Positions 203 to 24,005 are shown, counted from the first letter of the stretch. The stretch is DNA of 32,000 bases from Alkanindiges illinoisensis DSM 15370 (GCF_000619845.1 NZ_JHUX01000003.1:610064-642063), one strand, 5' to 3'. Numbers and translations: made by a program. Notes: generated from the sequence alone by a model not told the origin.

Positions 203-1975
203 ATGACCGTTTTAAGTGCAGAAATCGAAAAGGCGTATAAAGAGCAGCAGGATCAAATTGCTCAGTGCGCGAATTATTACTATGGTGGCTTTAATGCAAC
301 TGAAATTGCTCAGTTTGACAGTATTGCCATTGCCCCTGAATCACGTCCAGACCTGGTAAAAAGCCTGTTTGATTCGATTGGTGAAGAAGGTCAGGCTAAT
401 ATTGATAATGCAGTGCGCTGGGGTGTTGAACAATATCAAGCGCGTAATGGCGGCCAATTGCCTCATCCGTCAGTCATTGCCAGTGCGTTAGGTGCAGGCC
501 TGCAAGCAAGCACAATTAACCCTGAAAACTTAAGCAAAGCGATTGCTGGTTTCGATAGTATCAGTAACCTGCAATATGAGCAGGCCAGTATCGTGCCAGC
601 ATTGACCGTAGCGACCATTGCAAACGTCATTGCCTATGCATTGCCTATTTTTGCGCTGATTCCCAACAATAATCAGTCAGTTAAAGTGCCATTGGTGGCC
701 ATGCGCTTTATTACTGATACGGCGTTTGGTGCAATGGGTGCAGGTGAATATCTGGACGGCGAAAATGCCGCAAAACCCTATGCTGAAGGCCGCTTCCGCT
801 TTGCAATGGCTAAAGGCGCTGGTAATACTTACAGCGTAGTTGCCCATACCTGCTATGACGACTTTAAAGCCAAAACTCCAGACACCGCTACGCCGTTGCT
901 GCCATTCTGGTCAGGTCTGGTATCTGTAAAAATCAATGGCATGGAAGTAGGTCATACCCGTGATGACCGCCTGCTGTCTGTTGATAAAGGCCAGATTAGC
1001 CTGATTCCAAACCAGAAGGGCGTAAAAGTTGGTAACACAGTTTACAAACTCACTGGCAGCACTATCAATCTGGATACCAGCTCTATTAGTGTGACACTTG
1101 ATGGGGCACTGCCTGCTGGTGCTTCTATCGAAGTGGCCTTGGTTGCCAATTTTGAAGCCCGTGACGCTAACAAGAAATTCAAGCTCAATCCGGTTGGTGT
1201 GAGCGTTGAAGCGGAATATGACTCACTGGTGGCTGCGCCATTTGCCATGCGTGTTAATGCGTCATACAGCACACAAAGCCAGCTGGCCAATGAATTAAAC
1301 CTGGGCTTTGTGGGTGCTGCATTATCAATTATGCAAGGTAAGTTCTTTTTGGAACAAACCATTCGATTGCTCAAAGAAGTGAAAGAACGCGCTGTTTTAA
1401 ATGGTCGTGGCTACTTTGATATGTCGCGTGGTGTAACTGGTAATTTGTCTGCCGTTGCCAATACCACCGGTGATTTGTTTGCCGAAGTGCTCAAAGTCAT
1501 TAAGAAAGGTAAGCGTCGTATCCGCCGTGCTTCAGGTGGCGCAACTACCAGCTTTGACCTGTACGTGGGCGACAACGGTGAAATCTTCTTCACTACGCTG
1601 TCTGCTGATAAGTTCACACCGACTGGTGTCAGCTCAACGTATGGCGAAATTGTGCGTATCGGTACGCTGGCTGATGGCACCGATGTTTATCACACGCCTA
1701 ATGCGCAGGGTGTTATTGAAGAGTCTGACGACAATAAGACCTTTGAAATGCTGCTGATTGGTAAAGGGAATGAGCCAGTGCGCAACCCATTGGTTGGTCA
1801 TATCCCTAACCCGCCTGTGGTACGTGAAGCGTTTGCCGATACCCGTGAGTTGGTGATGGATATTCACGGCAAAATGGCTGCGGAATTGAACCCGCTGGAA
1901 CGCTACGCTGACCAGTGTGCGGTGCTACAAGTGGTTAATGCACCAGCCATTCCATTTGACCCACCAGCCAAGTAA
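203..1975 (+). CDS. Major capsid protein (gp23-like / HK97-fold) with ~120-aa N-terminal propeptide
   Basis: ATG at 203 is preceded by AAAGGTGA. The protein is 590 aa. Segments such as 'AMRVNASYSTQSQLANELNLGFVGAALSIMQGKFFLEQTIRLLKEV' and 'FEMLLIGKGNEPVRNPLVGHIPNPP' follow the pattern I know from gp23-type capsid proteins (R.l.A.ys.e..qdl....g.d.e..l...l..ei..ei; lliG.kG......g...P). The gene is flanked by strong terminators, as expected for a highly expressed gene. The ORF-track start at 71 is rejected. Confidence 0.75.
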   Translation: MTVLSAEIEKAYKEQQDQIAQCANYYYGGFNATEIAQFDSIAIAPESRPDLVKSLFDSIGEEGQANIDNAVRWGVEQYQARNGGQLPHPSVIASALGAGLQASTINPENLSKAIAGFDSISNLQYEQASIVPALTVATIANVIAYALPIFALIPNNNQSVKVPLVAMRFITDTAFGAMGAGEYLDGENAAKPYAEGRFRFAMAKGAGNTYSVVAHTCYDDFKAKTPDTATPLLPFWSGLVSVKINGMEVGHTRDDRLLSVDKGQISLIPNQKGVKVGNTVYKLTGSTINLDTSSISVTLDGALPAGASIEVALVANFEARDANKKFKLNPVGVSVEAEYDSLVAAPFAMRVNASYSTQSQLANELNLGFVGAALSIMQGKFFLEQTIRLLKEVKERAVLNGRGYFDMSRGVTGNLSAVANTTGDLFAEVLKVIKKGKRRIRRASGGATTSFDLYVGDNGEIFFTTLSADKFTPTGVSSTYGEIVRIGTLADGTDVYHTPNAQGVIEESDDNKTFEMLLIGKGNEPVRNPLVGHIPNPPVVREAFADTRELVMDIHGKMAAELNPLERYADQCAVLQVVNAPAIPFDPPAK

Positions 1976-1983
1976 GGGCAGTT

Positions 1984-2011: not shown

Positions 2012-2045
2012 CCCATTCAATATTCATAAAGTCAATGAGGGTATC

Positions 2046-3426: not shown

Positions 3427-3448
3427 ACCAAGAATCCAGAAAGAATCT

Positions 3449-3561: not shown

Positions 3562-3849
3562 ATGAACACAACAAAGATTTTAGGTGAAGCGGTCGGTGTG
3601 CAGTGGCAGGGTGTTACTGACAATACCGAAACCAATACAGTGGCCGGTTTAACGCAAGCCATTGTGATTGGCCGGTTTAAACGGGGTGAAGTTGGACGTC
3701 CCATGGTGATTACCCCAAACAATATTCGTGGTCAGCTGGGGCATGAACCTACCAATCCTTATTACATCGCTGTGCAGGCCTGTTTAGATGCTGGTGTGCC
3801 CAGTGTGCAGGTGTTACGTGTAGCTGATTCAATTCAACCTGAGGAATAA
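3562..3849 (+). CDS. Tail sheath protein, N-terminal segment (95 aa, ends at in-frame TAA)
   Basis: AAGG lies upstream of the ATG. 'AVGVQWQGV...QAIVIGRFKRGEVGRPMVITPNNIRGQLG...YYIAVQACLDAGVPSVQVLRV' follows the N-terminal pattern of contractile sheath proteins (GV.v.......s.viG.....g....P.li.s......fG....y.a..a...ga..v.vvrV). It is in the same reading frame as 3856-5154. Confidence 0.65.
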   Translation: MNTTKILGEAVGVQWQGVTDNTETNTVAGLTQAIVIGRFKRGEVGRPMVITPNNIRGQLGHEPTNPYYIAVQACLDAGVPSVQVLRVADSIQPEE

Positions 3850-3855: not shown

Positions 3856-5154
3856 ATGACGCAAATTAGACTTTCAGGTGCAGGCGTTTTATCACTAGGC
3901 GCTACAGTTAGCCCAGCGCTGGTCATTAGTGCAACGACAAAAAGCTATCTGGGTGATGATGCATCCCTTGATATCGCTTTTTTTGCGAAAGTGGCTAATC
4001 CGCTATCAGGTGATGATATCACCGTACGTTTAACCTGGTTTGACTCAACTACAGACGATCAAATTTTTAAGATTCAGGGCACATTAAGCAATGATGAGGA
4101 TGATTTGTCATCCATTCAGGCAGTCGCTGATGCTGCGGAAATCTTTGGAGAATTTAGTCTAATTCTTGGTTCTGGCCTGATTACTGCGGTTAAAAATTGC
4201 GTGGCTTTTAATGCATACAATGGCTTAAACCGTAACAGTTTTGCATTGCCGCTTCCAAGTGATCAGCCACCACCATTTGATGCCGATCAGGTCTATGACA
4301 TTTTAACGGCTGAAGGTGTTCGACCAGCCTATCTGGTGCTGCCGACCCTGGATGATCTGGAGCTTTACAACACGGTTTATCGTGCAGCTGACAAGCTCAA
4401 CATTCCCATGGACTGTGAGATTGACCCAACCATTACACCAGAGCAGGCTGCTGACTTGGCGCTTAATCTGGATGCACAGGATCAGCGCGTACAACTAATT
4501 TGGTCGCCTAATATCTGCCGTCCGCGTGATGCCGTATCCCTACGGGGCCGCAAAGTACCAGCCTACGCCATTGGCGCATACCTTGGTATGAAGTTACTTC
4601 GCAATGCACGTACAACAGCAGAGGGTATCCCCAAAATTGGCGACCCGGTAGCCGGTTACGATTTTCCATTCACCATGAAAGGCCTAGAAATGCGGCCTGA
4701 CGTGGTATTTAACGAGCAAACACTGGAAATGCTGGCTAAAGCTAAAGTGAATACTGTACGCCGCATGAGTTTTGGCGGGGGTGTGCGCTTTGTTCTCAGT
4801 GATGGCTTAACCCAGCGTCAAAGCAAGAACAGTGCGCTGCGCCTGGTCAATGCCACAGAAATTGCCTGCTATACCAGCAATATAGCAACCGACATTCTAA
4901 ATCGTCACATGCTTAGACGCATGAGCAGCTACTTAACTGATGCTAGCCGCGAAATTGAAGCCTTTTTGAAAAAATGTGCGGCACCTACGGTTGGCCTGTT
5001 GCAGCCTGCCGCAGATTTGGGCGGTGCGCCGTATGTATTTAGTTTAACGCCCGATGCTGACTATCCGTTTGAACGTGTTCGGCTGTATATGGCGCGTGGT
5101 ATAGACGGTATGACCCGTGCTGCAATTTTTGATAAAGACATTCTTAGTAAGTAG
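3856..5154 (+). CDS. Tail sheath protein, main body (432 aa)
   Basis: 'VPAYAIGAYLGMKLL...IGDPVAGYDF...NEQTLEMLAKAKVNTVRRMSFGGGVRFVLSDGLT' resembles the conserved sheath core (vPas..vaG......p.N..i.g......d...l....iN.ir.....g.r.wg.rT). The ATG lies 6 nt after the TAA of 3562-3849, and GAGGA sits 10 nt upstream. Confidence 0.7.
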   Translation: MTQIRLSGAGVLSLGATVSPALVISATTKSYLGDDASLDIAFFAKVANPLSGDDITVRLTWFDSTTDDQIFKIQGTLSNDEDDLSSIQAVADAAEIFGEFSLILGSGLITAVKNCVAFNAYNGLNRNSFALPLPSDQPPPFDADQVYDILTAEGVRPAYLVLPTLDDLELYNTVYRAADKLNIPMDCEIDPTITPEQAADLALNLDAQDQRVQLIWSPNICRPRDAVSLRGRKVPAYAIGAYLGMKLLRNARTTAEGIPKIGDPVAGYDFPFTMKGLEMRPDVVFNEQTLEMLAKAKVNTVRRMSFGGGVRFVLSDGLTQRQSKNSALRLVNATEIACYTSNIATDILNRHMLRRMSSYLTDASREIEAFLKKCAAPTVGLLQPAADLGGAPYVFSLTPDADYPFERVRLYMARGIDGMTRAAIFDKDILSK

Positions 5155-5169: not shown

Positions 5170-5961
5170 ATGATTTTTGGACATAAACGTAAAACCCCGG
5201 TGCCAGCGCTGATTGTGCCTGGCTTTGATTCTGTAGCCGTGGCGATTAGCCAGGCTGCAACCCTGACTGCCAGTGAACAACGTGAGCAGCAATCATTTAT
5301 TGAGCATGTGCGTGAACAGGCGCTGCATATCGTGTCGCATATGGCTGATACGATTATTGAAGGCAAACTAGAAGAAGGCGAGCTGCCCACTGACCTGCTG
5401 GACGGCCTGATGATCGAGGCACTGGATGGACTGGACGACGACGATAGCGACATTGAAGGCGCATTGGCCGGGTCCATTCAAGATGCATTGTCGTCTTTCG
5501 ACGTGGATGATTCTGTCATCAATGAAATGTTCGGTGATAATGTCACTGCTGCCGATGCTGCGATTGAAGCTGCTGCTGCAACCATTATCGCGAATATGCC
5601 CGATGAAGGTGAACCACTGGATGAATTTGCCCGTGAATTCATCTTCGGTGAGCCAGATGACATTGAGGAGGGGTTTGACTCTATCAGTGGTAAGCGCTTG
5701 ACTAAGGCACAGACTAAAGCCAAAGTCGGGGCGTTCTCGCATAAAAAAGTGGGTGGCCGTAAGGTTGCTTATAAAGGGGTACTGGCCATTCGTAAAGGCA
5801 TCAAAACCATTGTGAACAAGCGACTGCCTGGGCAGAAAATCCGTCAATCTGCTGACCAGAAACAGGCGATTAAAAAAGCCCGCCTGAAAGCACACACGGC
5901 TAATTCCATTCGCCAGCGTGTGAAATCGTTTAAGAAAGGTCGCAAGATGGGTTTGTATTAA
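5170..5961 (+). CDS. Acidic/basic internal-protein-like virion protein (leader - acidic region - basic tail)
   Basis: GGAG lies upstream of the ATG. The protein has a ~20-aa leader ending in GFDSV, a strongly acidic middle (LDGLDDDDSDIEG, EPDDIEEG), a second GFDSI, and then ~90 aa with 29 K/R and one acidic residue (my count). Confidence 0.6.
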   Translation: MIFGHKRKTPVPALIVPGFDSVAVAISQAATLTASEQREQQSFIEHVREQALHIVSHMADTIIEGKLEEGELPTDLLDGLMIEALDGLDDDDSDIEGALAGSIQDALSSFDVDDSVINEMFGDNVTAADAAIEAAAATIIANMPDEGEPLDEFAREFIFGEPDDIEEGFDSISGKRLTKAQTKAKVGAFSHKKVGGRKVAYKGVLAIRKGIKTIVNKRLPGQKIRQSADQKQAIKKARLKAHTANSIRQRVKSFKKGRKMGLY

Positions 5962-5982
5962 ACTACAGCGAATGATTGCGTT

Positions 5983-6008
5983 AAAAGGCTGCTTAGGCGG
6001 CCTTTTTT
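5983..6008. terminator. Bidirectional terminator between convergent genes
   Basis: aaaaGGCTGC-ttag-GCGGCCtttttt: 6-bp stem with one G:U pair, an A-run on one side and a T-run on the other. It sits between the stop of 5170-5961 (+) and the stop of 6020-6202 (-). Confidence 0.7.
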
Positions 6009-6019
6009 AATTACTAGAT

Positions 6020-6202
6020 TTATTTATCTGCATAGCATTTGGTCAATACATCGTGGTAGTGCTGATTCGCTTTGTCATAAGCGGTTTTAGCTTTTTCAAT
6101 GGTTGCCTTGTCACCACTGGATAGCGACTTATCATAATTTGCCCAAGCCTTTATTCTTTTACCATGGGCCTTGCTGTATTCCTTTTGCATATCAGTCATC
6201 AT
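6020..6202 (-). CDS. Small Lys-rich helical protein, function unknown (moron, gene 2 of 2)
   Basis: The ORF track starts at TTG 6211. I prefer ATG at 6202, which is preceded by GGAG (taattGGAGatcATGATG). The region is AT-rich (~30-43% G+C in my 60-nt hand counts, against ~50% in the flanks). Confidence 0.55.
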   Translation of the reverse strand: MMTDMQKEYSKAHGKRIKAWANYDKSLSSGDKATIEKAKTAYDKANQHYHDVLTKCYADK

Positions 6203-6214
6203 GATCTCCAATTA

Positions 6215-6490
6215 CTAAATTTCTAAATATAACTTAGCCTGATTGTAAGCGGTATCCAGTTCACTCAAGTAATCCTGCAAATAATCTGAGCCTATCAAAT
6301 TTTTCTGATGAAAGTCGTGTGCTTCACGCTTTAAGCCTTCATAGTCCATTTCCAAAAATTCAACATAATTTCTAATATATGTCATTACTTTCCAGTCCAG
6401 ATGCTTTTCATCCAAAAACAGGTTTTTACCCTTTTCTAAAATTGCTGTCGCTTTTTCCTGAGTCATGGGTTCCTGAATAATATTTTTCAC
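6215..6490 (-). CDS. Small acidic helical protein, function unknown (moron, gene 1 of 2)
   Basis: GTG start at 6490, or alternatively ATG at 6466 preceded by AGGAA. It lies on the strand opposite all neighbours, is AT-rich, and is followed 3 nt later by the second small ORF. Confidence 0.55.
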   Translation of the reverse strand: MKNIIQEPMTQEKATAILEKGKNLFLDEKHLDWKVMTYIRNYVEFLEMDYEGLKREAHDFHQKNLIGSDYLQDYLSELDTAYNQAKLYLEI

Positions 6491-6544
6491 TTTGGAAAAT
6501 CCCTAGGGTATGTGTTTTGAATAATAAAGTCCTTTATTGTCATT

Positions 6545-6587
6545 TGGAACCATGCAGGTCAGGGTATTTTCTAAACAAGCAAAATAG
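6545..6587 (+). promoter_or_regulatory. Copy D of the TGGAACC-N24-box element (candidate late promoter)
   Basis: TGGAACC 6545-6551, 24 nt, then CAAGCAAAATAG 6576-6587 followed by CCATAAG as in copy B. The ATG at 6615 lies 27 nt further on. Confidence 0.45.
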
Positions 6588-6614
6588 CCATAAGTAAACT
6601 TAGAGTATTGTGAC

Positions 6615-7148
6615 ATGGCTGGTTTAAACCTTGCGACATTAACCAATAAAGATGCATATATTGAAAAAATCCGTGCCGCACTGGAAACCGCAACCGGGCA
6701 ACAAATCCCGGCGGGTACCGTAGAGGTAGGGAAAGTCAAACGGGTGAGTGGGGTAAGCGCGGCACCTGTTACCTTTGCATTTGCTGGTGGTCAGTCATTG
6801 ACCCTTTATGTACGTGCGACTGCCGATGTATTTAAGGCTGAACTCAATGGCAAGGTCATCGTCCTGTCCGGTGATTTCAGTAACGACTGGAAACAAACCT
6901 TTGACGCTGCTGTGACTGGTGTGGCCAAGCTGGTACGTGATGGCCAAAAGGCGAAACAGGCAGAAAATGCACGTCAAAAAGTTAAAATTCCGCGTGCACC
7001 CAGCCAAAGCGTTACGGCAAAAATCAAGGAAGTGCAAGAACAGGAAGCCCAGCTTGATCAGCGTATCACTGAAAAAACTGCCCAGCGTGACCAGTTAAAA
7101 GAAAAACTGGAACAGGCCCGCGCGCAAATTGCAGCAGTGACCCAGTAA
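6615..7148 (+). CDS. Hypothetical protein; paralogue of the central domain of ORF 18114-20063, with a C-terminal coiled coil
   Basis: Shared blocks with 18114-20063: 'Y[IL]EK', 'V.V.K..KR..V...VT[FY]..A.GQS[LV]T[LI]' and 'QRIT[ED]KTA'. The tail is Q/E/K/A-rich. Confidence 0.6.
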   Translation: MAGLNLATLTNKDAYIEKIRAALETATGQQIPAGTVEVGKVKRVSGVSAAPVTFAFAGGQSLTLYVRATADVFKAELNGKVIVLSGDFSNDWKQTFDAAVTGVAKLVRDGQKAKQAENARQKVKIPRAPSQSVTAKIKEVQEQEAQLDQRITEKTAQRDQLKEKLEQARAQIAAVTQ

Positions 7149-9896: not shown

Positions 9897-10280
9897 TTAT
9901 TTTTTAGGGGGTTTGTCGTTATCGTAAACCCCTTCGATAATTAACTGGGAATCCGTTTCAAGCAAAACGCACACCTGAGCGTGATAATCCAGGTCATTAA
10001 CGATTTTGATAGCTTCTTCAACATCATCAAATTTCTTAGCCAAAATCGGAGTACGCGCATAAGCACGCTTGATCATCATATTATTTTCTTCAAATTTTGC
10101 TAGAAATTCATCTGGTTCAGGCAAATGAACCACATAGCCGTTAAAGCTAGTGTTATCAGGCAGGCCCAGTTCTTTAATCGTGTCTTTTAAATTGCGTGGC
10201 CTAAGGTCATATTTTTCAGCCAGCGTTTCAGCCTGTTTTTTTCGTTCTTCAAAATTCCCGCGTTGCTTGGCCTGACCCAT
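9897..10280 (-). CDS. Hypothetical protein on the opposite strand (moron), function unknown
   Basis: 127 aa starting at an ATG (MGQAKQRGNFEERKKQ...). It converges on the I-like gene with a 9-nt gap. G+C is lower (~35-42% in my hand counts). Confidence 0.6.
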   Translation of the reverse strand: MGQAKQRGNFEERKKQAETLAEKYDLRPRNLKDTIKELGLPDNTSFNGYVVHLPEPDEFLAKFEENNMMIKRAYARTPILAKKFDDVEEAIKIVNDLDYHAQVCVLLETDSQLIIEGVYDNDKPPKK

Positions 10281-10385: not shown

Positions 10386-11036
10386 ATGCGTCAGTCCAAC
10401 CCAATCTTAGCTCATCAGCTGGAAGCCGATGCACAGGCCATGCTGCAACTGGGTTCCCCACTTCTATCATGTCAGGGGATGTTTGTACCGCGTGACATGC
10501 CGGAACTACGCTTTTTATTTAAAAGTGGCCCGCGTCCAATTATCACCAATAGTGATCCTGCTGAAACTCACATGGCTGGCGGCAATGTGATTATCACCGC
10601 AGGTTGCCCTGTGACCAAGTACACGGGCAATTTACAAATCATTGTGACCGAAGCTTGTCATGAGCAATTGTTCGCTGAATATATCGTGGCCAGTGGCGGG
10701 ATACTGGATGTGTGCGATTTTTATGATGGGCGCGTCGATAGCTTTACCGCTGCCTACGAACTTAAAAACTGTGCAATTCGCTTTGAGCCTGGCGAATGGG
10801 ATAGTGAGAGCAAATCGCAGACCCAAATCATATCCGCGCCTATTGATTACAACTACTACGGCAATTTTGCCAGCATTGGCGTCAATGGCACCGTATTGCC
10901 CGGTAAGCGCAAGGTTGAAGGCGTGGACGACCTGATTAACAGAGTTGAACGTGTAGTCCGTACGGCACAGTCTGCTACTAGCCTTGCACGTAATGCCGTC
11001 AGTGTTGGTCGCCAAATCGGTTCTTTGTTTGGGTAA
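10386..11036 (+). CDS. Hypothetical tail protein (possible tail tube)
   Basis: 216 aa; GAGAA lies upstream. It is the first gene of the unit that contains the hub, fibre and spike genes. The tube assignment is a guess from size and context only. Confidence 0.55.
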   Translation: MRQSNPILAHQLEADAQAMLQLGSPLLSCQGMFVPRDMPELRFLFKSGPRPIITNSDPAETHMAGGNVIITAGCPVTKYTGNLQIIVTEACHEQLFAEYIVASGGILDVCDFYDGRVDSFTAAYELKNCAIRFEPGEWDSESKSQTQIISAPIDYNYYGNFASIGVNGTVLPGKRKVEGVDDLINRVERVVRTAQSATSLARNAVSVGRQIGSLFG

Positions 11037-11045
11037 GCAGGGACA

Positions 11046-11069
11046 GCATGCGGGAGTTTTCCCGCATGC
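11046..11069 (+). other. Intergenic stem-loop without a U-tract
   Basis: GCATGCGGG-agtttt-CCCGCATGC: perfect 9-bp stem, followed by cgcataggg rather than a T-run. Confidence 0.6.
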
Positions 11070-11087
11070 CGCATAGGGTGAGTTGAT

Positions 11088-12430: not shown

Positions 12431-12437
12431 GAACGAT

Positions 12438-14305: not shown

Positions 14306-15212
14306 TATGTTCCTAATCACAACAGTATTAAGGCCCAAGCCAAAGCAGGTGATGATTGGCTGCGAGGGTGCAATAGAACTTGTGCATTTGGGCGGGTTTT
14401 ATGGTTGCTGGACAGTTCTGATTAATGGCGTACCTTTAGATGTTCCACCTTACGAGGTAGGTAATGGTACGACGATTGAAAACTGGTGGAGTGAGATAAT
14501 TCAGGCAATCCGGGAAGATGGCAGGGTATCAATTAAGTATGTTGGGGAATTACATACGATCTGGAGCAATAACACGACTGAGTATGTGCGTATAGAGCTG
14601 ATTGGTTTACCAAACCCTGATTCTCCGAATTTATCAGCCATCAATGATTATCCTGATGTTTCACCAGATGAATTAAACCCGACACGGTTACTTGAAAATC
14701 CGGTGGAAAATTTTCCAGAATCATTTAGTAAGGTTTCATTCTGCCTTGCCCCTTCGACCTGTGCTGCGCAGGGTGCAGATATCATCATTAACCGTTCTAT
14801 TCCATTGCCTGCTGGAACGTATTACATGGAATACCAGCTGAACGAGGGTAACTGGCAGCGTATTGAAAAGACTTATTCAGTGCAAAAACATGCTGATGAT
14901 GTAGGTATGGATTTATTTAGAATCTTTGATGAATCCGGCTGGGCATTAATTGATACAAATGGCGGTGGTAATGGCACACTTGATGAAGATGGTCTACGTC
15001 GTCACCCGACACCTTTTGAATCATACCGGGCGAGGGCTGAAATCAGGGATGCACCGTTAGTTCCTGATATTCAGCCTGAACTGGCAATTCGTAAACCAAC
15101 AACATTGAAGTTTAGAACGTCACTGGGTACAGGTACTGATGCGGTGCAACTGTATTTCGGTGGTGATGTCGAGCTGCATGCGTGTACGTATGCATTCTGG
15201 CCCGGTCTTTAA
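14298..15212 (+). CDS. Hypothetical protein downstream of the fibre gene (fibre-associated, receptor-binding or assembly role possible)
   Basis: 304-aa ORF. ATG 14307 (AGGA 8 nt upstream) is an equally good start. I see no recognisable motif. Confidence 0.55.
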   Translation: MPNMFLITTVLRPKPKQVMIGCEGAIELVHLGGFYGCWTVLINGVPLDVPPYEVGNGTTIENWWSEIIQAIREDGRVSIKYVGELHTIWSNNTTEYVRIELIGLPNPDSPNLSAINDYPDVSPDELNPTRLLENPVENFPESFSKVSFCLAPSTCAAQGADIIINRSIPLPAGTYYMEYQLNEGNWQRIEKTYSVQKHADDVGMDLFRIFDESGWALIDTNGGGNGTLDEDGLRRHPTPFESYRARAEIRDAPLVPDIQPELAIRKPTTLKFRTSLGTGTDAVQLYFGGDVELHACTYAFWPGL

Positions 15213-15262: not shown

Positions 15263-15775
15263 ATGTTTGGTTTTCCCCGCGCTAAAATCCTGAGCTATAA
15301 CCAGAAGGCCCGGACAGCCCAGATTCATATTTATGGTATGACAGATGGGGCCAGTGAAGGTTTAGAAGCCACATTTGCTTATCCGGTTGGTGATGACGAC
15401 CTTGATACCGAACGCGAAATATTGGTCGGTGCAGACGTGTATATCTTCTTTCAAAATGGTGATGAAGGCTTACCAGTGGTCTGGAGCTACAGCAGTCACG
15501 GTGAGGGAGCCGTTGAAGATGTGCGCCGGATCCGGCAGAAAAATATTGAAATTCTTGGGCGTGAAAATGTACTGGTTGAAGCCCCTATAGTAACAATTAA
15601 GGCCCATCTCGTGCTTGAGGGTGATTTTACTCACACAGGCGACCAGACGACAACGGGCAAGATCACAGCCACAGAAGATGTGATAGGTGGCGAAGTATCT
15701 CTTAAATCCCATCCTCATAGTGGAGTCAGACGTGGGTCTGAACAAACTGACCCACCCATGCCTACTGGAACCTAG
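15263..15775 (+). CDS. Baseplate central spike, gpV / Mu gp45-like
   Basis: AGGA lies upstream. 'VGADVYIFFQNGDEGLPVVWS' matches the gpV OB-fold motif (G..V.v.f..GD...P.V.g). The C-terminal 'SLKSHPHSGVRRGSEQTDPP' matches the H.H.g..gg.T..P ending. Confidence 0.6.
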   Translation: MFGFPRAKILSYNQKARTAQIHIYGMTDGASEGLEATFAYPVGDDDLDTEREILVGADVYIFFQNGDEGLPVVWSYSSHGEGAVEDVRRIRQKNIEILGRENVLVEAPIVTIKAHLVLEGDFTHTGDQTTTGKITATEDVIGGEVSLKSHPHSGVRRGSEQTDPPMPTGT

Positions 15776-15808: not shown

Positions 15809-15838
15809 GCCTTAAATTGGTGAATTTTGGCAACAAGA

Positions 15839-17461
15839 ATGGCAGTTTCAGATGTTTTAGCAATCTTGCTCGGTGCAGGCTCCGCTGCTTCAGCACCGTC
15901 GCCTATCGTCGGGGCAGCTCAAGAAAGTATGGCGCATATGTATGACGCCGCTGCGCCATTTTCGCTAGGCACCCATCAAACCAAAAATAATAAGAAACGT
16001 ACCCGCAAGGAAATCATGACCAAATGGGAGCAAATGCTTAAGTTTGCCCCTATTGCTGAAAGTATGGGAATCCATAGCACCGCTGCACTGGGTGGTGATG
16101 AGCACACCAGCCAGCAAGTATTCATTAAGCCTGCTGAACGCCTGCAAAAAGCCGACAACCCTGTTTTAAAAGCACAGCTTGCCAAACTTGAAAAACGTAT
16201 CAAGCCGATGGAGCGGCTGATCAATCAGCATATTCTTAAACTGTGTTTTGATGCCTGCGGCTTTGGCGATTCCTATGCCCGTGTATATGGGAAAAAAGGC
16301 ATTGGCGTCGTGGATATGATGTGTAACGAATACACCTATCCACCGCTGGTTTTACCGTTTGAGCAGGGTAGTAAAACGCTGGTCTATCATTTGTTGGACG
16401 CCCGAAACTGGACGAATACCAGTTCAAAATTAGGGGCGCGACAAATGATCCGCATGAAAATGCCGCGGATTCTGCACGTTCCCCAGCATGAAATCATTGA
16501 AGGCGTGCTTGTTGCCAAGATGATGGAAGAGGACGACCCGGACAATTTGCCGCTTTTCCCAGCGCATGTGGGTGGCTCATTTTTAATTGCCATTGAAGAA
16601 ATTTTTGACAATGTGATTCGTGCGCTAGCGGCAATGAATACACAGCAGGTTGCTGATGCAGTCAACCAGATGTTTTTAACCATGAACATGGCCGGTATGC
16701 CACCGGCACAGCGTGAAGCCTACAAGCAAGGGCTTGAAGGCATGTTACGTGAGCATGAACAGTTTGTTAAGAATGCATTAGATGGCGGCGAAGCACTTTA
16801 CACCACGAAATACCACGTATTGCCAACATGGGATGAAAAGCAAATTTTAAACCCGATTGGCGATATCAAGGGCCAGCGTAGTACAGCCATTAATATTGAA
16901 ACTTTTATGATTGACGTACGCTTGCTTATGGGGGGCCTTGGTCTGGACCCGTCCATGGTAGGCTGGGCTGATATGTTATCCGGTGGAATAGGTGATGGTT
17001 CCGCGTCCCTGACGTATTCAAGCCAGGTGATGCGCCGTTCCATGATGATACGGCAGTCCTCAAGCCAAATGGTTAATGACTTGCTTAAAATTGACTGGGG
17101 CTATGCCTATAACGAAGATTTTGACAATGAACTGGATTATCCATGGCAAGTGGTCTTTCATTCTGATCAGACTGCAGCAGCCAATGAAATCCAGACGACC
17201 AAGCAAACCCGCATGAATACATTGCTGATTAAGACGCAGGTCATTACCGCGATTAAAGACGCAGGGCTTAATGAAGAAAATACCGCACTACTGTTAGAGC
17301 GTGACGGGGGGATGGATTACGACGAAGCCCAGAATCTGGCTAAAGATATTACCAGCGCCCGGGAAAAAGCCTTAGAGGATGGCCAAAATCCCAATGGCAA
17401 TCCACAGGATGACAACTTAAATCCTGAACCAGAAAATGACGACGAAGAGGACGGCATTTAA
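15839..17461 (+). CDS. Portal protein
   Basis: ~540 aa. The N-terminal region 'TRKEIMTKWEQMLKFAPIAESMGIHSTAAL' resembles the portal pattern seen in T4 gp20 (TReli..y..l......n.a...i..dai). The C-terminus is highly acidic (PEPENDDEEDGI). The track start is TTG 15827. ATG 15839 is preferred because it restores the 26-30 nt box-to-start spacing seen at the other copies. Confidence 0.65.
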   Translation: MAVSDVLAILLGAGSAASAPSPIVGAAQESMAHMYDAAAPFSLGTHQTKNNKKRTRKEIMTKWEQMLKFAPIAESMGIHSTAALGGDEHTSQQVFIKPAERLQKADNPVLKAQLAKLEKRIKPMERLINQHILKLCFDACGFGDSYARVYGKKGIGVVDMMCNEYTYPPLVLPFEQGSKTLVYHLLDARNWTNTSSKLGARQMIRMKMPRILHVPQHEIIEGVLVAKMMEEDDPDNLPLFPAHVGGSFLIAIEEIFDNVIRALAAMNTQQVADAVNQMFLTMNMAGMPPAQREAYKQGLEGMLREHEQFVKNALDGGEALYTTKYHVLPTWDEKQILNPIGDIKGQRSTAINIETFMIDVRLLMGGLGLDPSMVGWADMLSGGIGDGSASLTYSSQVMRRSMMIRQSSSQMVNDLLKIDWGYAYNEDFDNELDYPWQVVFHSDQTAAANEIQTTKQTRMNTLLIKTQVITAIKDAGLNEENTALLLERDGGMDYDEAQNLAKDITSAREKALEDGQNPNGNPQDDNLNPEPENDDEEDGI

Positions 17462-18113: not shown

Positions 18114-20063
18114 ATGCGCCGGAATATCGATATTTTCACCCAGACTCATGCACCGCATTCCAGCCGGTTTGTGGCAGGTTTTGATTCCATTAACAGCGGG
18201 TCCTGTGCAGTAGGTTTTATTGCTGGCCAATATCGCCGTATCCCGGCGCTTGTGGCTGAAACAGCGACCGATGATGACCAATGGCGAGTTGTTAATCTAA
18301 AAGGCGGTAAGGGCAATGAAGCGCATTTTGATGCGATTGCGGTACTGGGCGCGGTAGATGATCAACAGGCAGCTGATATGACGTTAATGCAGTTTGGCCG
18401 CCTATTTGATTCTGTGGCTATGGATGTGCTGACAACCAATACCAATGGCCTAATGCGCCATTTAGATACCAGCCACTACCACGCTAAACCCAGCACCATT
18501 GCCCCATGGCAACTTAAGGCCATGCAGGACGTGATTTGTGCTGAAAAACCTATGTGGGATGACATCAATCTGGTATCCCATAAAGGCCAAACCGCCAATT
18601 TGCTGCTGGATATGCAACGCCATGATGACCACGATGGGTTGTTATCCCAGTTTGACGGATTGCCAAATTTGCTTGAGCAGCTTGGCGTTGAAGAGCCGGG
18701 CTTTGATGCGCTCATTGTGCAGTATCAATATCTTGAAAAGCTGACCGCACAATTGCATACCGCTATGAAAAATGCGGGCAAGGCTGGTGTGCAAGTGGTG
18801 AATGTCACCGTTAGCAAGCCATTCAAGCGTAACAAAGTGGCGCAAGTTGCGGTGACTTACGATATGGCAGACGGCCAGAGCGTCACGATTCTCTTTCACA
18901 ACCCTGACAGCACACCGTCCAAACTGGCGCCAGCTGATACGCTCATTTCATGGAAAATCCAGATGAATAACCGTGATATTACTGGCGCTATTCAACCGAA
19001 CCAGGGTGAAGGTATTGCCTTACCAGTGCTGGCTGGCCGTATTCTAAAACTGGTCAATCAGAATAGTGACCGGTTTAAGCGCTACCAGGTTAAAAAAACA
19101 GAGCAGGCGCAGGCTTTGGCGGATGCCGAACAGCGTATCACTGATAAAACCGCCCTCGATAAAGCGCTGGACGACGAAATGACTGATTTACAGCAACAGA
19201 TTGATGCAGCCCATGAGCAGGCCAAGCAACAGCAGGAACTGGCTCAGCAAAATAGCGAAGTTCTTAAGGGGCTTATGGCTGATATTGCAGCAACTGCTGA
19301 TCTGGGTGAAGCCACTACCAAAAATTACTTCTTTAAAGAAAAAGAGGTGGATGGCACCAAGTTTCATTTGTCAGTAGACCCATTTGGTGATGGCCTGACG
19401 GTTTGTTTATCAATCATGCCTGCCACTGGCGGCGAGCAGACAGAAGAACAGGCCTTTACGCTAGAACAACTGCAAAACGGTGGTTTTGAGGAAGCTAAGG
19501 CCTATCTAAAAACACTGGATGAAAAGTTTAATCAGGCCGTGGTTGAGGATGATTCGATTCCTGCTGAAGATATTCAGTTTGTGAGAGATATCGAGGCAGG
19601 CACGGTAGACGGTCTGGCCGAAGATAATTTCAAGCGCTTATATGGTATTGCTCAGGAAACCAAAAACAATGGGGATGAGGAAACCGAAGGCGCAGCAGTT
19701 AGTGCTGCAACGGTGATGGCCGAGAAACTTAAACCTGTTGCAACTGAAAAAGGTATCTCGCTTGAGCGCCTAAATACCGCGATTGATGATGAAGATGTAC
19801 TGGAAATCCTAGATTCCATTGAAGCCTTGCAAGCTGCCCTTAATGCAGCACCTGAACCTGAGCCTGAACCAGCTGCTAACCCGGATCAGGAGTTTCTGCA
19901 AAACATCATTGCAGGCACTGTGGACGCCACAACTGTTGATATGGATCACATCATAGAACTGGGCGAGAAGTACCCAGACGATGCAGCATTCAATGCATTG
20001 TATGAGCAGGCTCTCAATGCGATTAACAAGGCTGAGCAAGAAGCCGCCAAGAGTTTGGGTTAA
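18114..20063 (+). CDS. Large acidic coiled-coil protein; candidate packaged accessory protein (DarA-like in size and position, unverified)
   Basis: 649 aa. A GFDSI motif sits 22 aa from the N-terminus, like the leader of 5170-5961. The central domain is paralogous to 6615-7148. It also has a Q/E/A coiled coil, a PEPEPEP linker, and two copies of a [QE]F[VL]..I.AGTVD module. There is no SD, but the start is supported by the box-to-ATG spacing. Confidence 0.6.
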   Translation: MRRNIDIFTQTHAPHSSRFVAGFDSINSGSCAVGFIAGQYRRIPALVAETATDDDQWRVVNLKGGKGNEAHFDAIAVLGAVDDQQAADMTLMQFGRLFDSVAMDVLTTNTNGLMRHLDTSHYHAKPSTIAPWQLKAMQDVICAEKPMWDDINLVSHKGQTANLLLDMQRHDDHDGLLSQFDGLPNLLEQLGVEEPGFDALIVQYQYLEKLTAQLHTAMKNAGKAGVQVVNVTVSKPFKRNKVAQVAVTYDMADGQSVTILFHNPDSTPSKLAPADTLISWKIQMNNRDITGAIQPNQGEGIALPVLAGRILKLVNQNSDRFKRYQVKKTEQAQALADAEQRITDKTALDKALDDEMTDLQQQIDAAHEQAKQQQELAQQNSEVLKGLMADIAATADLGEATTKNYFFKEKEVDGTKFHLSVDPFGDGLTVCLSIMPATGGEQTEEQAFTLEQLQNGGFEEAKAYLKTLDEKFNQAVVEDDSIPAEDIQFVRDIEAGTVDGLAEDNFKRLYGIAQETKNNGDEETEGAAVSAATVMAEKLKPVATEKGISLERLNTAIDDEDVLEILDSIEALQAALNAAPEPEPEPAANPDQEFLQNIIAGTVDATTVDMDHIIELGEKYPDDAAFNALYEQALNAINKAEQEAAKSLG

Positions 20064-20075: not shown

Positions 20076-20420
20076 ATGTTGACTGCATTAGAAAAAGCCA
20101 AAGCCCTTAAAGAGTTTAGAGAATTGCGCCTTAAACTGGCTGGTGATGGATTAACCGCGCTGGACAAGGCCAAATCGTTAAAGCGCTTTCGTGAATTGCG
20201 TTTGTTGCTGGGTGGACAGAATCAACCAGAAGCACAGGAACCCGCCAATAATCCGCTGTACCAGTCCATTCTGGAAGGCCGGGAAGTCACACTAGAATTG
20301 CTGGAGCAGGTCAAGGCAGAGGCCGAAAAAGACTTGAACCATCCACAGCTGATTCCCGCTGTTCTTAAACTTAAAGAGCAGGTTGAACCATTACAGGTGC
20401 ATCAGAGTGAGGCGGCTTAA
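20076..20420 (+). CDS. Small helical protein with an internal 24-aa tandem duplication
   Basis: GGGGG lies upstream. LTALEKAKALKEFRELRLKLAG (aa 2-23) and LTALDKAKSLKRFRELRLLLGG (aa 26-47). Its stop abuts the ATG of the next gene. Confidence 0.65.
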   Translation: MLTALEKAKALKEFRELRLKLAGDGLTALDKAKSLKRFRELRLLLGGQNQPEAQEPANNPLYQSILEGREVTLELLEQVKAEAEKDLNHPQLIPAVLKLKEQVEPLQVHQSEAA

Positions 20421-23400
20421 ATGGTGTCGAAAACGGATAAAACCGCCTTAAATCAAATTGACGTCGTTGCAAATCCCATTGCAGCGATTGATGCGATGAT
20501 TGATGCGCTTAAGCACCAGCAGCACGAAAACTACGAGTTTTTAACGGGTGAACCGGTTGCATCCATCCAGTCCGGCCAGATTAAGCCTGATGAGAAGGGT
20601 CATTACATCAAGGCGGCTGTTAACTGGTTTAGGGAGTGGATGGACAAAAATAGCCATGGGCAGGAATTTGAAAATGTGCAGCTAGGAACAATCATTATTG
20701 CGCCTAGTGGCATTAAATCAGCCATGAGTCATAAACCCCACCCAATTGATGTTCAGGCGCTACCGGCCTTGCCTTTGATTATTGAAAAAGCTGTTGTTCT
20801 CAGTAGAACAATGGATGATATGGGCAAACCATTAGAAAATATTGTGGTCGCGGCACCCATCGAAATTGACGCCAAAAAATATTATATGGTTGTTCGTTTA
20901 AGACGGCACACTGAAGATAAAAACGATAGACCCCGCTTTTATACGCAAGCGGTTACTATTGCAGAGGACATAAAAAAAGGACACATCCCTTCAGACCAAG
21001 TGACTGGGCAAAATAAATTGCTTACTCAAAATGGAGGACGTGTCCGTTTATTAAATGTACTGTATAGCGCTCTCAGTGTCAATAATCCAGCGACCAGCAT
21101 TGTTACAGGCCGTACAAACACTGTAAAAACCCCAAAAGGCACCAAACTTGATACGGTTTTTGCACTGGTTGAAGCTGACAATGTAATTGCATCACACGAT
21201 AGCACTGGCGGGACTAATCCTAAATTTCCGCAAGAATTGCAGCCGCGTGACCGTAGCCGCGAAGCCAGCCAGACATGGGTGAAAAAAACAGCGGCCAATC
21301 TGGATCCTGATAGTCTGGGTAAAACCAGCCGTGCAGACACCGGTGCGCCGATTGTTGGTGATGACTTGATTGTTGAATCCGGGAACGGTCGCACCATGGC
21401 GATTCAATTAGCGTACGCACGTGGTACCGCAGAGGAATACCGCGCTTGGCTGGTTGATGAGGCAGAATACTTTGGATTTAAGCCTGAACAGGTTGAAGCC
21501 TTTAAGCAGCCTGTACTGGTGCGTATCCGTAAAACTGAGATTGACCGTGCCGCATTTGCAGTAGAAGCGAACCAGGATGATAAGCTGTCTTTGAGTGCCA
21601 CGGAACGCGCCAAGGCCGATGCTCGCCGTATTGATGACAATATGGCGATGCTATTTAACCCAAGCGAAGATGGGGATTTACTGGCGGCCAGTAACCAGAA
21701 ATTTATACAGGCTTTTTTACAGTCCATTGGTGATACCGAAGCTGCTCAGTATATTGGAACCGATGGCAAGCCAACGCAGGCACTAGTTTTACGCATTAAA
21801 GCAGCGGTATTTAGCAAGGCTTATAAGGATGACCGTCTTTTAGAGATGGTGGCAGACCAGACCAAGCCAGACTTAAAAAATATGCTGAATGCATTAAGTG
21901 TTGCGGCGCCCAAGTTTATTGAGGCCCAAGCCATTAGCCGGTTACAAACCGAAGATTTATCCAGTCAAATTGTTGATGGTATTGAAAGTGCCACTGACCA
22001 AAAGGTTATTGATGCGATTATTGCCGCTGCAAACGTGGTGATGACCGCAAAAAATGACAACCATGACGTGACCGAGTTTGTTAAGCAGCAAGGCCTGTTT
22101 GGTGATTTACCGGATGGTGTGGCAGAGCTGGCCGTATTCCTATCCAAAAATGCCAGCAGTGCCAAAAAGATGAGTCTGTTATTCAAAGCTATGGCCAGCT
22201 TTTTGGAAAAACAGGCAATTGACCAGAGTAACAATAGCCTGTTTGGTGATCCTGAGCCGCTGAGCATGCGAGAGGTCATTCAGCATGCTGTTGGTGTACT
22301 TGAGCAAGAATATGGCGATAAAGCCAATTTAAGCATGTTTGATGATTTAGGCTTTCTAGAGCCTAAGTTATTTGACCAGATTTTTAAGTCCTACGCCCGC
22401 ACTGGGGAATGGACACCAACAAAATATCTGGAGCAAATGGATGCGTTGCGTCGTATTTTCTTTGCAAACGGCTGGGGACGTGAAAGACGTACTAACGGCT
22501 TCATGATCAAGCCTTGTGGTGAACGCAAAGTACGTCTTATTAAATATGCCGATGATGATAAATTTTTTGTCAGCATCGTTGATTTAGATGAAAAATTAAT
22601 CACTGAAATTGTAGGTTGTGATAATAAGGCCATTCCTGAAATCATTGCTGAAATTAATAAATATCTTAATGAAGATCAGCAACTATCATTAGAAAAGTCT
22701 GGCTTTGATTCGGTTGATGGCAATGATCAGATTGCTATGGTGCCTAAGGTTGATGCTAGCAATACATGGATGAATGGGCAAATCATTCCATGGTCAGAAA
22801 ATCCTGAGACTGATTTTGCGCATTCCATGAAATTGCCATCTTCCGGTCAGCTTGGTGATAAGGTTTGTTTTCATGTCTGGGCAAATGAAAGTAAAGAGTC
22901 AAGGGTGAGAATAGATGCATTTATTGCAGATATTAAGTTTAAGACCAGTAAAGTATGGTATGGACTGGCCATGCGCATTGCTGATACGCGATTTGCGACA
23001 CTGATTTACTTACCTAGTGGGACTTTTGATATTTTAACCAGTCATGAAAGTGTAGACGGTTATGATGCCTTACTCACCATGGAAGAGATATGTCGGCATA
23101 ACTGTTTGCGTACTGATATTGATAAGCAAGCCCATGAAGCCGCCACGTCACCTTACAATGATTTGCCAGAGCCGACTGAAGCACAAAAAATTTCAGGGGA
23201 TTATGTGAAGGGCAAGCTATCAATTGCGGGTGTAGATATAGCGATTGAAAATCCGGCTGGTTCTACACGCTCAGGCGTTGACGCCAGTGGAAAGGCTTGG
23301 CAAACCACGATGAAGCATCACTATGGCTACATTGAAAATACCATGGGTGCCGATGGTGATGAGCTGGATGTATTTGTTAAAACTGGTTTGAATGAATATA

Positions 23401-24005
23401 CCGGCATTGTGTATGTCATCCGCCAGCTTGATCCAGAAAGCCTAGATTTTGATGAACACAAGATCATTATTGGCGCGTCTACATTAGAAGAAGCCCAGCA
23501 AATTTATTTGTCTAATTATGAATCGGGCTGGCAGGGGATGGGCAGTATTGAAACGCTATCCATTGAAGATTTTAGGAACAGGCTGGGTAAGACCTGGACG
23601 CAGTTTGATTCGATTGGCCAGCACGTTGAGCCAATCACTGTTCTGAATCAGCTTATTGGCATCTTGCAGGCCAAAAAAATCACTGACCAGCAGCAGTTAA
23701 TGGAACTGCGCGAGGAAATTCGCACCAATGAGCAGACCGCCCGTTATTTGATGGGTGGCCGTAAGGGATTGTGGGGCCGCACAACCAATGCGGACAATAA
23801 ACGCAGTGCTGAATTGTCAAATTTACGCCTGAAATACCAGCTGGCACTGAATCATTTTATTGCCCTGTATTCCATTGACAAGCGGGAAGCCCGTACCTTT
23901 AATTTACGCCATGGCGTCAATTCTTTTGATTCCATCGAAAATGACCAGATACACCCAGTATTTCATGCGATTTATGGGCATGGAAACCACTGGAACAGCG
24001 CATAA
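20421..24005 (+). CDS. Polyvalent protein: unknown N-terminal domain + ParB/DdrB-like domain + helical region + pyrophosphatase-signature domain
   Basis: 1,194 aa. ParB-superfamily motifs are 'ELQPRDRSR' and 'VESGNGRTMAIQLAY' (GxxR box). 'DGDELDV' at 23352-23372 fits the family-I PPase signature D-[SGDN]-D-[PE]-[LIVMF]-D-[LIVMGAC] as I recall it. Three FDS[IV] motifs separate the segments. Confidence 0.7.
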   Translation: MVSKTDKTALNQIDVVANPIAAIDAMIDALKHQQHENYEFLTGEPVASIQSGQIKPDEKGHYIKAAVNWFREWMDKNSHGQEFENVQLGTIIIAPSGIKSAMSHKPHPIDVQALPALPLIIEKAVVLSRTMDDMGKPLENIVVAAPIEIDAKKYYMVVRLRRHTEDKNDRPRFYTQAVTIAEDIKKGHIPSDQVTGQNKLLTQNGGRVRLLNVLYSALSVNNPATSIVTGRTNTVKTPKGTKLDTVFALVEADNVIASHDSTGGTNPKFPQELQPRDRSREASQTWVKKTAANLDPDSLGKTSRADTGAPIVGDDLIVESGNGRTMAIQLAYARGTAEEYRAWLVDEAEYFGFKPEQVEAFKQPVLVRIRKTEIDRAAFAVEANQDDKLSLSATERAKADARRIDDNMAMLFNPSEDGDLLAASNQKFIQAFLQSIGDTEAAQYIGTDGKPTQALVLRIKAAVFSKAYKDDRLLEMVADQTKPDLKNMLNALSVAAPKFIEAQAISRLQTEDLSSQIVDGIESATDQKVIDAIIAAANVVMTAKNDNHDVTEFVKQQGLFGDLPDGVAELAVFLSKNASSAKKMSLLFKAMASFLEKQAIDQSNNSLFGDPEPLSMREVIQHAVGVLEQEYGDKANLSMFDDLGFLEPKLFDQIFKSYARTGEWTPTKYLEQMDALRRIFFANGWGRERRTNGFMIKPCGERKVRLIKYADDDKFFVSIVDLDEKLITEIVGCDNKAIPEIIAEINKYLNEDQQLSLEKSGFDSVDGNDQIAMVPKVDASNTWMNGQIIPWSENPETDFAHSMKLPSSGQLGDKVCFHVWANESKESRVRIDAFIADIKFKTSKVWYGLAMRIADTRFATLIYLPSGTFDILTSHESVDGYDALLTMEEICRHNCLRTDIDKQAHEAATSPYNDLPEPTEAQKISGDYVKGKLSIAGVDIAIENPAGSTRSGVDASGKAWQTTMKHHYGYIENTMGADGDELDVFVKTGLNEYTGIVYVIRQLDPESLDFDEHKIIIGASTLEEAQQIYLSNYESGWQGMGSIETLSIEDFRNRLGKTWTQFDSIGQHVEPITVLNQLIGILQAKKITDQQQLMELREEIRTNEQTARYLMGGRKGLWGRTTNADNKRSAELSNLRLKYQLALNHFIALYSIDKREARTFNLRHGVNSFDSIENDQIHPVFHAIYGHGNHWNSA
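21141..21640 (+). other. ParB-superfamily (DdrB-type) domain within 20421-24005
   Basis: 'FALVEADNVIASHD...FPQELQPRDRSREASQ...GAPIVGDDLIVESGNGRTMAIQLAY...PVLVRIRK...RAAFAVEANQDDKLSLSATERAKADA'. The boundaries are approximate. Confidence 0.55.
23163..23570 (+). other. Inorganic-pyrophosphatase-like domain within 20421-24005
   Basis: 'LPEPTEAQKISGDYVKGKLSIAGVDIAIENPAGSTRSG...HYGYIENTMGADGDELDVFV'. The sequence block resembles one that I recall in phage/ICE polyvalent proteins. The boundaries are approximate. Confidence 0.5.

Follow-up and report, generated by a model that had tools for sequence, protein, structure and literature searches.

Proteolytic maturation of the phage head, guided by a short sequence motif, is a well-established principle known from T4 and from phiKZ/SPN3US. 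The T4 prohead protease gp21 cuts after Glu in L/I-x-E, and the prohead proteases of phiKZ and SPN3US (gp175 and gp245, respectively) cut after A-x-E. Motifs of maturation proteases are known for few phage groups, T4 and phiKZ/SPN3US among them; in the P1 group only one cut has been mapped, and PMC9024508 and PMC12810830 describe no consensus. This cut lies in the P1 capsid protein gp23 between E120 and S121, as determined by Edman sequencing, and yields a mature N-terminus SVAAEM (PMC9024508). Both gp23 and DarA of P1 are processed by Pro, and Hdf is unprocessed. P1 DdrB is processed to about 76 kDa, and the first 30 residues of DarB mediate the packaging of this 250-kDa protein. Here we analyzed a stretch of 32,000 nt from Alkanindiges illinoisensis DSM 15370 (NZ_JHUX01000003.1:610064-642063; hereafter the window), in which the short peptide motif F-D-S-[I/V] recurs in head proteins, among them relatives of those processed in P1. 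The gene content of the window marks it as the late region of a P1-like myophage belonging to the Acinetobacter/Moraxellaceae prophage group. We propose that the motif copies are probably cleavage sites of the Pro-type prohead protease of this lineage, which is predicted to cut after the Asp residue.

A reading made from the sequence alone had listed ten copies of F-D-S-[I/V]. A six-frame scan of the window returned exactly these ten copies, all on the + strand and at the same positions. They are confined to four open reading frames (ORFs), the first of which was mechanically called as 71-1975 and the others as 5170-5961, 18114-20063 and 20421-24005. These encode a P1 gp23-like major capsid protein, a homologue of P1 gp21, a DarA homologue and a DdrB-like polyvalent protein. 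From the residue frequencies of the 10,075-aa window proteome 0.198 copies are expected, in line with the earlier estimate of well below one, and in 2,000 shuffles of the proteome, the control suggested for the count, the maximum was three. The Poisson probability of at least ten copies is 2e-14, and about 3e-8 after correction for the approximately 1.5 million possible patterns of the same form. A first-order Markov model gives an expectation of 0.62 with the motif's own counts included. FDSI is the commonest tetrapeptide of the window proteome with seven copies. Ser is the residue that most often follows FD (12 of 50 cases), and Phe the one that most often precedes DS (12 of 47). The copies use four different Ser codons (TCG, TCT, TCC and AGT), and their 30-nt flanks are unrelated, with a mean identity of 0.29 and a maximum of 0.47. 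Thus the signal lies at the level of the peptide, as had been argued from the differing codons, and the unrelated flanks rule out an origin of the motif as a DNA repeat. In the window proteome F-D-S-[I/V] is absent from the sheath, tube, baseplate and portal proteins and from the 2138-aa protein. The near misses are an FDST in the sheath and an FDSN in the 2138-aa protein; these, too, are as first described.

To place the motif in a comparative context we used related phages and prophages. The nearest sequenced phage is Acinetobacter phage vB_AbaM_ABMM1 (GenBank OQ471969; hereafter ABMM1), with approximately 55–60% protein identity. A megablast search of the first 8 kb against GenBank phages gave no match, and neither did single-protein scans of IMG/VR and GTDB genomes with the capsid protein. 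Profile-based scans of the IMG/VR and GTDB genomes, by which the relatives were found, placed them as prophages in many Acinetobacter species. The only near-identical contig, L006, has a length of 15.9 kb and a 95% identical capsid protein. At the homologous columns of the alignments the fourth motif position is also occupied by A, M, L, S or W, and the Ser can be replaced by Ala or Asp. The core motif is therefore broader than FDS[IV], namely F-D-[S/A/D], with at least 13 likely sites in the window, of which the earlier ten copies are a subset. The F-D-S core of the motif as first formulated was thus retained, and its limitation to I/V was not. The tripeptide is kept in homologues while its flanks drift, which had been named as a check on the motif. 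All sites and the genes that carry them are listed in Table 1 together with the context genes.

Table 1. Coordinates of the motif sites, the proteins that carry them and related late genes of the window.
Feature	Coordinates	Strand	Remarks
Major capsid protein, 590 aa	203-1975	+	phrog_1014; 55.7% identical to its ABMM1 counterpart
Capsid site 1, Q-FDSI-A, residues 38-41	314-325	+	Linker 30-44 with predicted local distance difference test (pLDDT) <50
Capsid site 2, L-FDSI-G, residues 56-59	368-379	+	Where helices 51-60 and 62-82 meet
Capsid site 3, G-FDSI-S, residues 117-120	551-562	+	Linker 112-129 with pLDDT <50, before N-arm helix 126-146
P1 gp21 homologue, 263 aa	5170-5961	+	phrog_1053; aligns with P1 gp21 and ABMM1 10889-11656
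gp21-like site 1, G-FDSV-A, residues 19-22	5224-5235	+	FD[SA] at this column
gp21-like site 2, G-FDSI-S, residues 169-172	5674-5685	+	Acidic/basic boundary
Hdf-like protein	6615-7148	+	phrog_1620 'Hdf-like'; Pfam DarA_N; no FDS
Tail tube	10386-11036	+	No FDS[IV]
Portal protein	15827-17461	+	phrog_1497; ABMM1 homologue 60% identical and itself matching P1 Prt; no motif
DarA homologue, internal head protein, 649 aa	18114-20063	+	Pfam DarA_N at residues 197-318, E = 5e-28
DarA site 1, G-FDSI-N, residues 23-26	18180-18191	+	From the six-frame scan
DarA site 2, H-FDAI-A, residues 72-75	18327-18338	+	Ala for Ser; FDSV/FDSI in relatives; new here
DarA site 3, L-FDSV-A, residues 98-101	18405-18416	+	Column FDA[ICS] in relatives
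DarA site 4, G-FDAL-I, residues 197-200	18702-18713	+	N-terminal edge of DarA_N; new here
DdrB-like polyvalent protein, 1194 aa	20421-24005	+	Pfam LPD3 64-167, ddrB-ParB 239-371, InPase 920-1054
DdrB-like site 0, LSM-FDDL, residues 640-643	22338-22349	+	End of the DdrB-homologous part; new here
DdrB-like site 1, G-FDSV-D, residues 762-765	22704-22715	+	Between the DdrB-homologous part and InPase
DdrB-like site 2, WTQ-FDSI-G, residues 1062-1065	23604-23615	+	Directly after InPase
DdrB-like site 3, S-FDSI-E, residues 1169-1172	23925-23936	+	25 aa from the C-terminus
DarB-like methyltransferase-helicase, 2138 aa	24068-30484	+	Pfam N6_Mtase, SNF2, Helicase_C; phrog 'DarB-like'; no FDS[IV]

The capsid protein provides the link to the mapped P1 cut. 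Its gene had been taken to begin at GTG 71. Homologues and a ribosome-binding site (AAAGGTGA) place the start at ATG 203 instead, the mechanical call over-extending the gene by 44 codons (71-202), and the three capsid copies consequently begin at residues 38, 56 and 117. No Pfam family was found for the protein. Its AlphaFold2 (AF2) model, with a mean pLDDT of 79, matched P1 gp23 (9ukm_A) best among PDB entries, with E = 9e-23, before the T4 and phiKZ capsid proteins. The model consists of a helical, scaffold-like N-terminal delta domain of approximately 117 aa followed by an HK97/T4-type fold. All three sites are conserved. At site 1 Phe and Asp are invariant and Ser is conserved in more than 90% of 27 aligned homologues; site 2 reads FDSI or a shifted GFDSA in most of 55 homologues; and the column of site 3 is G-F-D-[S/D]-[I/V]-S-N in the 27-sequence alignment, with an invariant Asp. 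Nearly all of the 55 capsid homologues, down to 30% identity, contain F-D-S twice in their first 75 residues. Maturation is predicted to cut at site 3, in the bond D118|S119, and would give a mature protein of 472 aa. In a pairwise alignment this site, AIAGFD|SISN, falls on E120|S121 of P1 gp23, where the P1 sequence reads AMLE|SVAAEM. It is also aligned with the P1 cut when the 27-sequence profile is compared with 9ukm_A, with f-D-d-i opposite L-E-S-V.

To assess how the motif is distributed among late proteins, we counted FDS per non-redundant protein across 80 related IMG/VR loci. The count was 2.07 for the capsid protein, 1.9 for the gp21-like protein, 2.33 for DarA and 1.97 for the Pro homologue. 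It was 0.0 for terminase, portal, sheath, baseplate and the giant tail protein, and 0.03 for the tube. The restriction to head proteins, first noticed in the window, is thus also seen across these loci. It also agrees with what is processed in P1: the motif occurs in the window homologues of the processed proteins gp23, DarA and DdrB, and it is absent from the Hdf-like and DarB-like proteins. In a 170-aa protein of ABMM1 (L002 150-662, phrog_4179), encoded upstream of the large terminase gene, the sequence QQEFDSSSL is conserved at the C-terminus, with 24 of 25 non-redundant homologues carrying it. The window encodes no counterpart of this protein, which is a possible additional target of the prohead protease.

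The form of the motif varies between phage lineages. In Xanthomonas phage Rb1, the capsid of which is 25% identical, the capsid N-terminus contains FDSA and MDSA, the gp21-like protein has LDSA near its N-terminus, and the internal head protein has MDSV, MDSA and LDSV. The overall Rb1 variant is therefore [F/M/L]-D-S-[A/V/I] at equivalent positions of the capsid, gp21-like and internal proteins. In P1, gp23 contains LIES at about residue 103 besides the mapped MLES|V, and similar matches are found in gp21 (LMESA at 29), Pro (MFESA at 169 and LFESL at 294) and DdrB (LFESV at 440). P1 DarA has LLE68|A69, and its cryo-EM model starts at residue 70. We gave up the search for a statistically clean P1 motif of the form hydrophobic-[DE]-[SA]-aliphatic, which is too degenerate for one genome, and therefore used P1 only for the mapped site and for these suggestive matches. 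Taken together, the sequences point to what appears to be a family-wide rule, hydrophobic-[D/E]|[S/A], in which the Acinetobacter-type lineage has fixed Phe and Asp. The sequence-only reading had presented FDS as a specificity not known from any phage protease. Its Phe/Asp form is indeed distinct; it is not without precedent, being a version of the hydrophobic-Glu|Ser site of P1.

Compared with P1 head maturation as a whole, the players in the window are homologous (gp23-like, DarA, Hdf, DdrB-like, DarB-like and gp21-like proteins, with a Pro-like protease in relatives). The predicted capsid cut lies at the end of an N-terminal domain of approximately 120 aa, as does the mapped P1 cut, and the site chemistry is the same, i.e. 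hydrophobic, acidic, Ser, aliphatic (MLE|SV in P1, GFD|SI here). The two differ in that P1 uses Glu with Leu or Met, whereas the window lineage uses Asp with a strict Phe. Sequence identity is low, at 15% for the capsid protein in a structural alignment and 24–31% for portal, DarA and Pro.

Next, we searched for the cognate protease. The prohead protease gene had been expected outside the window, and in relatives it was found approximately 8.5 kb upstream of the capsid gene; the gene of this phage itself was not recovered. No contig extending the window upstream was found, and the near-identical 15.9-kb contig does not contain the protease gene. The ABMM1 protease, encoded at 73838-74743, shares 31% identity with P1 Pro across the catalytic part and belongs to the same PHROG. 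It has no Pfam family, and a sequence-profile search against PDB returned nothing meaningful. An AF2 model built with 36 homologues matched T4 gp21 (5jbl) best in Foldseek, followed by herpesvirus proteases, and His59 and Ser126 are invariant among the homologues. A protease of the gp21 fold is encoded in every related genome examined. Moreover, 55 of 56 protease homologues, down to 35% identity, carry [F/Y]-D-[S/A/D] after the catalytic domain, mostly in two to four copies. In the AF2 model these copies lie at about residues 180, 208 and 263, in low-confidence linkers that flank a long helix. Such an arrangement fits a prohead protease that trims itself, as reported for SPN3US gp245 (PMC10052503).

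The second motif carrier, the ORF 5170-5961, comes immediately downstream of the sheath gene, matching the order of genes 22 and 21 in P1. We considered it as a tail tube candidate and rejected this: the tube gene lies elsewhere (Table 1), and this ORF is the gp21 homologue. No Pfam family was found for it. In this protein an N-terminal peptide precedes an acidic middle region, and the C-terminal stretch of approximately 93 aa is very basic. FD[SA] is present at both motif columns in all 43 of 43 non-redundant homologues. The gp21-like protein is a candidate processed internal or scaffold-like head protein. P1 gp21 is not listed in the fragments examined of the P1 virion protein table. After trypsin digestion, a processed protein of very basic character would easily be missed.

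The third carrier, the DarA homologue, matches P1 DarA (9ukm_I) in phmmer with E = 2e-12, and tblastn matches darA of P1 and P7. Site 1 reads GFDS[IVM] in seven of eight aligned sequences, window and ABMM1 included, and the eighth is truncated. Relatives have FDSI, YDSI or FDAL at the column of site 4. Over the four columns the window has FDSI, FDAI, FDSV and FDAL, and the relatives have FDS, FDS, FDA and FDS, indicating that Ser and Ala interchange. By analogy with LLE68|A69 of P1 DarA, site 4 is a candidate for the mature N-terminus. Where P1 has ddrA, the window has an ORF of 114 aa (20076-20420) with homology to the last 60 residues of the 650-aa DarA of ABMM1, and thus one ABMM1 gene corresponds to two genes here, or the reverse.

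In the DdrB-like polyvalent protein, the motif marks domain boundaries. The ABMM1 homologue of this protein is 41% identical to P1 DdrB and 64% identical to residues 194-643 of the window protein. The window sites at 640, 762, 1062 and 1169 delimit the part homologous to DdrB and the InPase domain. Site 0 corresponds to LSMFDS[AI] just before InPase in Acinetobacter homologues, which also have F-D-S between LPD3 and ParB, as K[V/A]GFDSI. The copy just after InPase, WSEFDS, is W[ST][EQD]FDS in nearly all Acinetobacter-type homologues, and many homologues have ISSFDS[AV] approximately 15 aa from the C-terminus. Most of the remoter InPase homologues (roughly from P0113 onwards in the ranking, the named Vibrio ones included) have no FDS copy. 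Pfam searches found no peptidase domain in the window protein, and the MPTase peptidase domain is absent both from it and from the Acinetobacter homologues examined. This domain has been proposed as the processing device of polyvalent proteins (Iyer et al., 2017). The window protein shares with the MPTase polyvalent proteins of that study the character of a multi-domain injected effector and the family with LPD3, DdrB-ParB and InPase. It differs, as do its Acinetobacter relatives, in having no peptidase and in carrying the motif at each domain boundary, which implies processing in trans by the capsid protease.

From the motif, its statistics, conservation and placement, and from the homologies of the proteins that carry it, we infer the cleavage itself, the bond that is cut and the enzyme. 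The motif x-F-D-[S/A/D]-[aliphatic or small] would be recognized and cleaved inside the assembled procapsid by the P1 Pro homologue, a serine protease with a predicted fold like that of T4 gp21 and herpesvirus assemblin. The cut would be after Asp, because P1, T4 and SPN3US all cut after an acidic residue. The delta domain of the capsid protein would be chopped at residues 39, 57 and 118 to give the mature 472-aa shell protein starting at S119, and DarA would be trimmed at up to four sites before the DarA_N domain. The gp21-like protein would yield three pieces, namely a short leader, the acidic middle and the basic C-terminal part, and the DdrB-like protein would be cut at the domain boundaries 640, 762, 1062 and 1169. 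The ParB-type part and the InPase domain would then be separate head-internal proteins ready for ejection, and the protease may cut itself at two or three linker sites.

The proposal that F-D-S is a site of head-maturation proteolysis, already made in the sequence-only reading, is supported by comparative evidence, namely the identity of the carriers, the alignment with P1 gp23, the conservation of the sites, the concordance with P1 processing and the protease linkers. Its second half, capsid targeting, fits many internal copies poorly: only the gp21-like protein and DarA have a copy approximately 20 aa from the N-terminus, and most copies are internal. Several observations weigh against cleavage. 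The protease gene is not in the window. The N-terminal profile match to P1 gp23 is weak alone (domain i-Evalue 9.2), and one multiple alignment put the P1 site a few columns off. In most capsid homologues the column of the maturation site is F-D-D, not F-D-S, so that either the requirement at the P1′ position is loose or the scissile bond is perhaps elsewhere. YDSL occurs inside the mature capsid fold, where it is presumably uncut, and hence sequence alone does not define a substrate. The WSEFDS at the end of InPase recurs as TALFDS in some non-Acinetobacter homologues, so this copy could be partly intrinsic to the domain. Finally, processing of P1 DdrB has been ascribed to its own metallopeptidase domain and not to Pro (Iyer et al., 2017).

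We weighed three other explanations. F-D-S might be a docking signal, i.e. a short linear motif that binds the capsid interior, the portal or the scaffold and recruits cargo without being cut. Models for such a motif exist in the capsid-targeting sequences of T4 and in the cargo-loading peptides of encapsulins. Docking would be in keeping with carriers that are all head-internal or head-forming, with the two proteins that have a copy approximately 20 aa from the N-terminus, and with the loading of DarB in P1 via a short N-terminal signal. However, DarB, the sole P1 protein with a proven targeting signal, has no motif here, many copies lie deep in long proteins at domain boundaries, a capsid copy aligns with a mapped cleavage site, and copies also lie in the linkers of the protease itself, as is the case in prohead proteases that cleave themselves. 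We consider docking in place of cleavage unlikely; docking recognition and cleavage are not mutually exclusive.

A host protease would be a different agent acting on the same sites. In the staphylococcal phage 80alpha, capsid and scaffold proteins are cut by the host protease Prp, and the motif studied here is sharpest in Acinetobacter prophages, which have their host genus in common. Yet it varies with the phage lineage, from F-D-S through [F/M/L]-D-S in the Xanthomonas phage to hydrophobic-E-S in P1, it is conserved in the phage protease itself, the processing of P1 gp23 and DarA is ascribed to Pro, and each related genome examined has its own gp21-fold protease. It is thus very improbable that a host enzyme replaces the Pro homologue. 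Least credible of all is that the motif reflects an excess due to chance or composition, or a structural element that stems from internal duplication or is intrinsic to certain domains. Such an origin could be seen in WxxFDS abutting the InPase domain in some distant homologues, and GFDS[VL] does occur by coincidence in the helicase core of P1 and Rb1 DarB. Against this stand the probability given above, which remains low after pattern correction, unrelated flanking peptides and DNA, copies located in predicted disordered linkers and not in folded cores, and the sharing of the motif by four unrelated protein families and the protease. Statistics, distribution and flanks effectively refute this explanation.

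The predicted system resembles both well-described prohead proteases. As in T4, an acidic residue precedes the predicted cut, the capsid propeptide and internal proteins would be processed in the prohead, and the protease is predicted to cleave itself; the predicted fold of the protease is closest to T4 gp21 (5jbl). In contrast to the T4 site, F-D-S has a hydrophobic residue directly before the acid, which is Asp instead of Glu. The window lineage has no separate T4-like scaffold core, and its predicted substrates are anti-restriction proteins of the Dar type. With phiKZ/SPN3US it shares a short motif that is found in the capsid protein as well as in numerous ejected internal proteins and in the protease, and propeptides with multiple motif copies (PMC10052503). 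The motif and the phage group are different, and the sites there were determined by mass spectrometry, whereas those described here are predicted. In addition, nearly all cuts in phiKZ/SPN3US remove N-terminal propeptides, whereas several sites in the window lie at internal domain boundaries. New here are the F-D-S code in P1-like phages of the Acinetobacter type and the occurrence of this code at domain boundaries in a polyvalent protein.

The window also contains the P1-type Dar set. DarA with its DarA_N domain is accompanied by an Hdf paralogue, and the ddrB-ParB protein and the giant DarB are encoded in the same late region. Packaging in the head and protection from type I restriction are functions known only for the P1 Dar proteins (PMC12810830). 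Other genes of the window differ from those of relatives. The tail sheath gene looks split: the main ORF, 3856-5154, matches the sheath profile only from position 116 on, and two small ORFs, 3562-3849 (95 aa) and 12384-12818 (144 aa), both match the N-terminal sheath-like family phrog_5283. Both are approximately 57% identical to the same small ABMM1 ORF annotated 'tail sheath protein', and the small sheath gene is therefore duplicated in the window. In ABMM1, an ORF of 3451 aa follows the pmgB-like gene; the window has at this place the ORFs 12818-14305 and 14298-15212, without a Pfam or PHROG family. A third ORF there, 15263-15775 (170 aa), has a GpV Apex motif; its match to the 3451-aa protein is confined to the initial ~140 aa of the latter. 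No gene of tape-measure size lies within the window. The missing giant ORF could reflect replacement, deletion in a defective prophage or relocation. Between the gp21-like and Hdf-like genes, approximately 650 bp (5962-6614) are free of + strand ORFs; a small ORF, 6215-6490, lies there on the minus strand, and at the matching place contig L006 has two small genes on that strand. The 6215-6490 region and 9897-10280 are the only minus-strand candidates, and the late region is otherwise one-directional.

The motif has consequences for several proteins of this phage group. Because it is conserved across the family, it provides testable predictions of the mature termini for the capsid, DarA, gp21-like and DdrB-like proteins. 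It is also a candidate cleavable tag for loading cargo into P1-like capsids as delivery vehicles. A further step, which we regard as plausible though somewhat less probable than its opposite, is that the prohead protease serves as a polyprotein processor. In that case, DdrB-like proteins without a peptidase would have gained the motif at each of their domain boundaries, with the head as the cutting compartment. Members of the gp21 family would then be internal or scaffold proteins that are processed and leave their highly basic C-terminal fragment with the DNA. If this is true, separate injectable effectors, among them the ParB-type part and InPase, would arise from one precursor, and the ejected proteome of such phages could generally be listed by scanning for the motif. 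The motif offers a sequence-only way to spot head-internal, injected anti-defence effectors in the very common Acinetobacter prophages, and it suggests how polyvalent proteins that lack a peptidase of their own become separate units.

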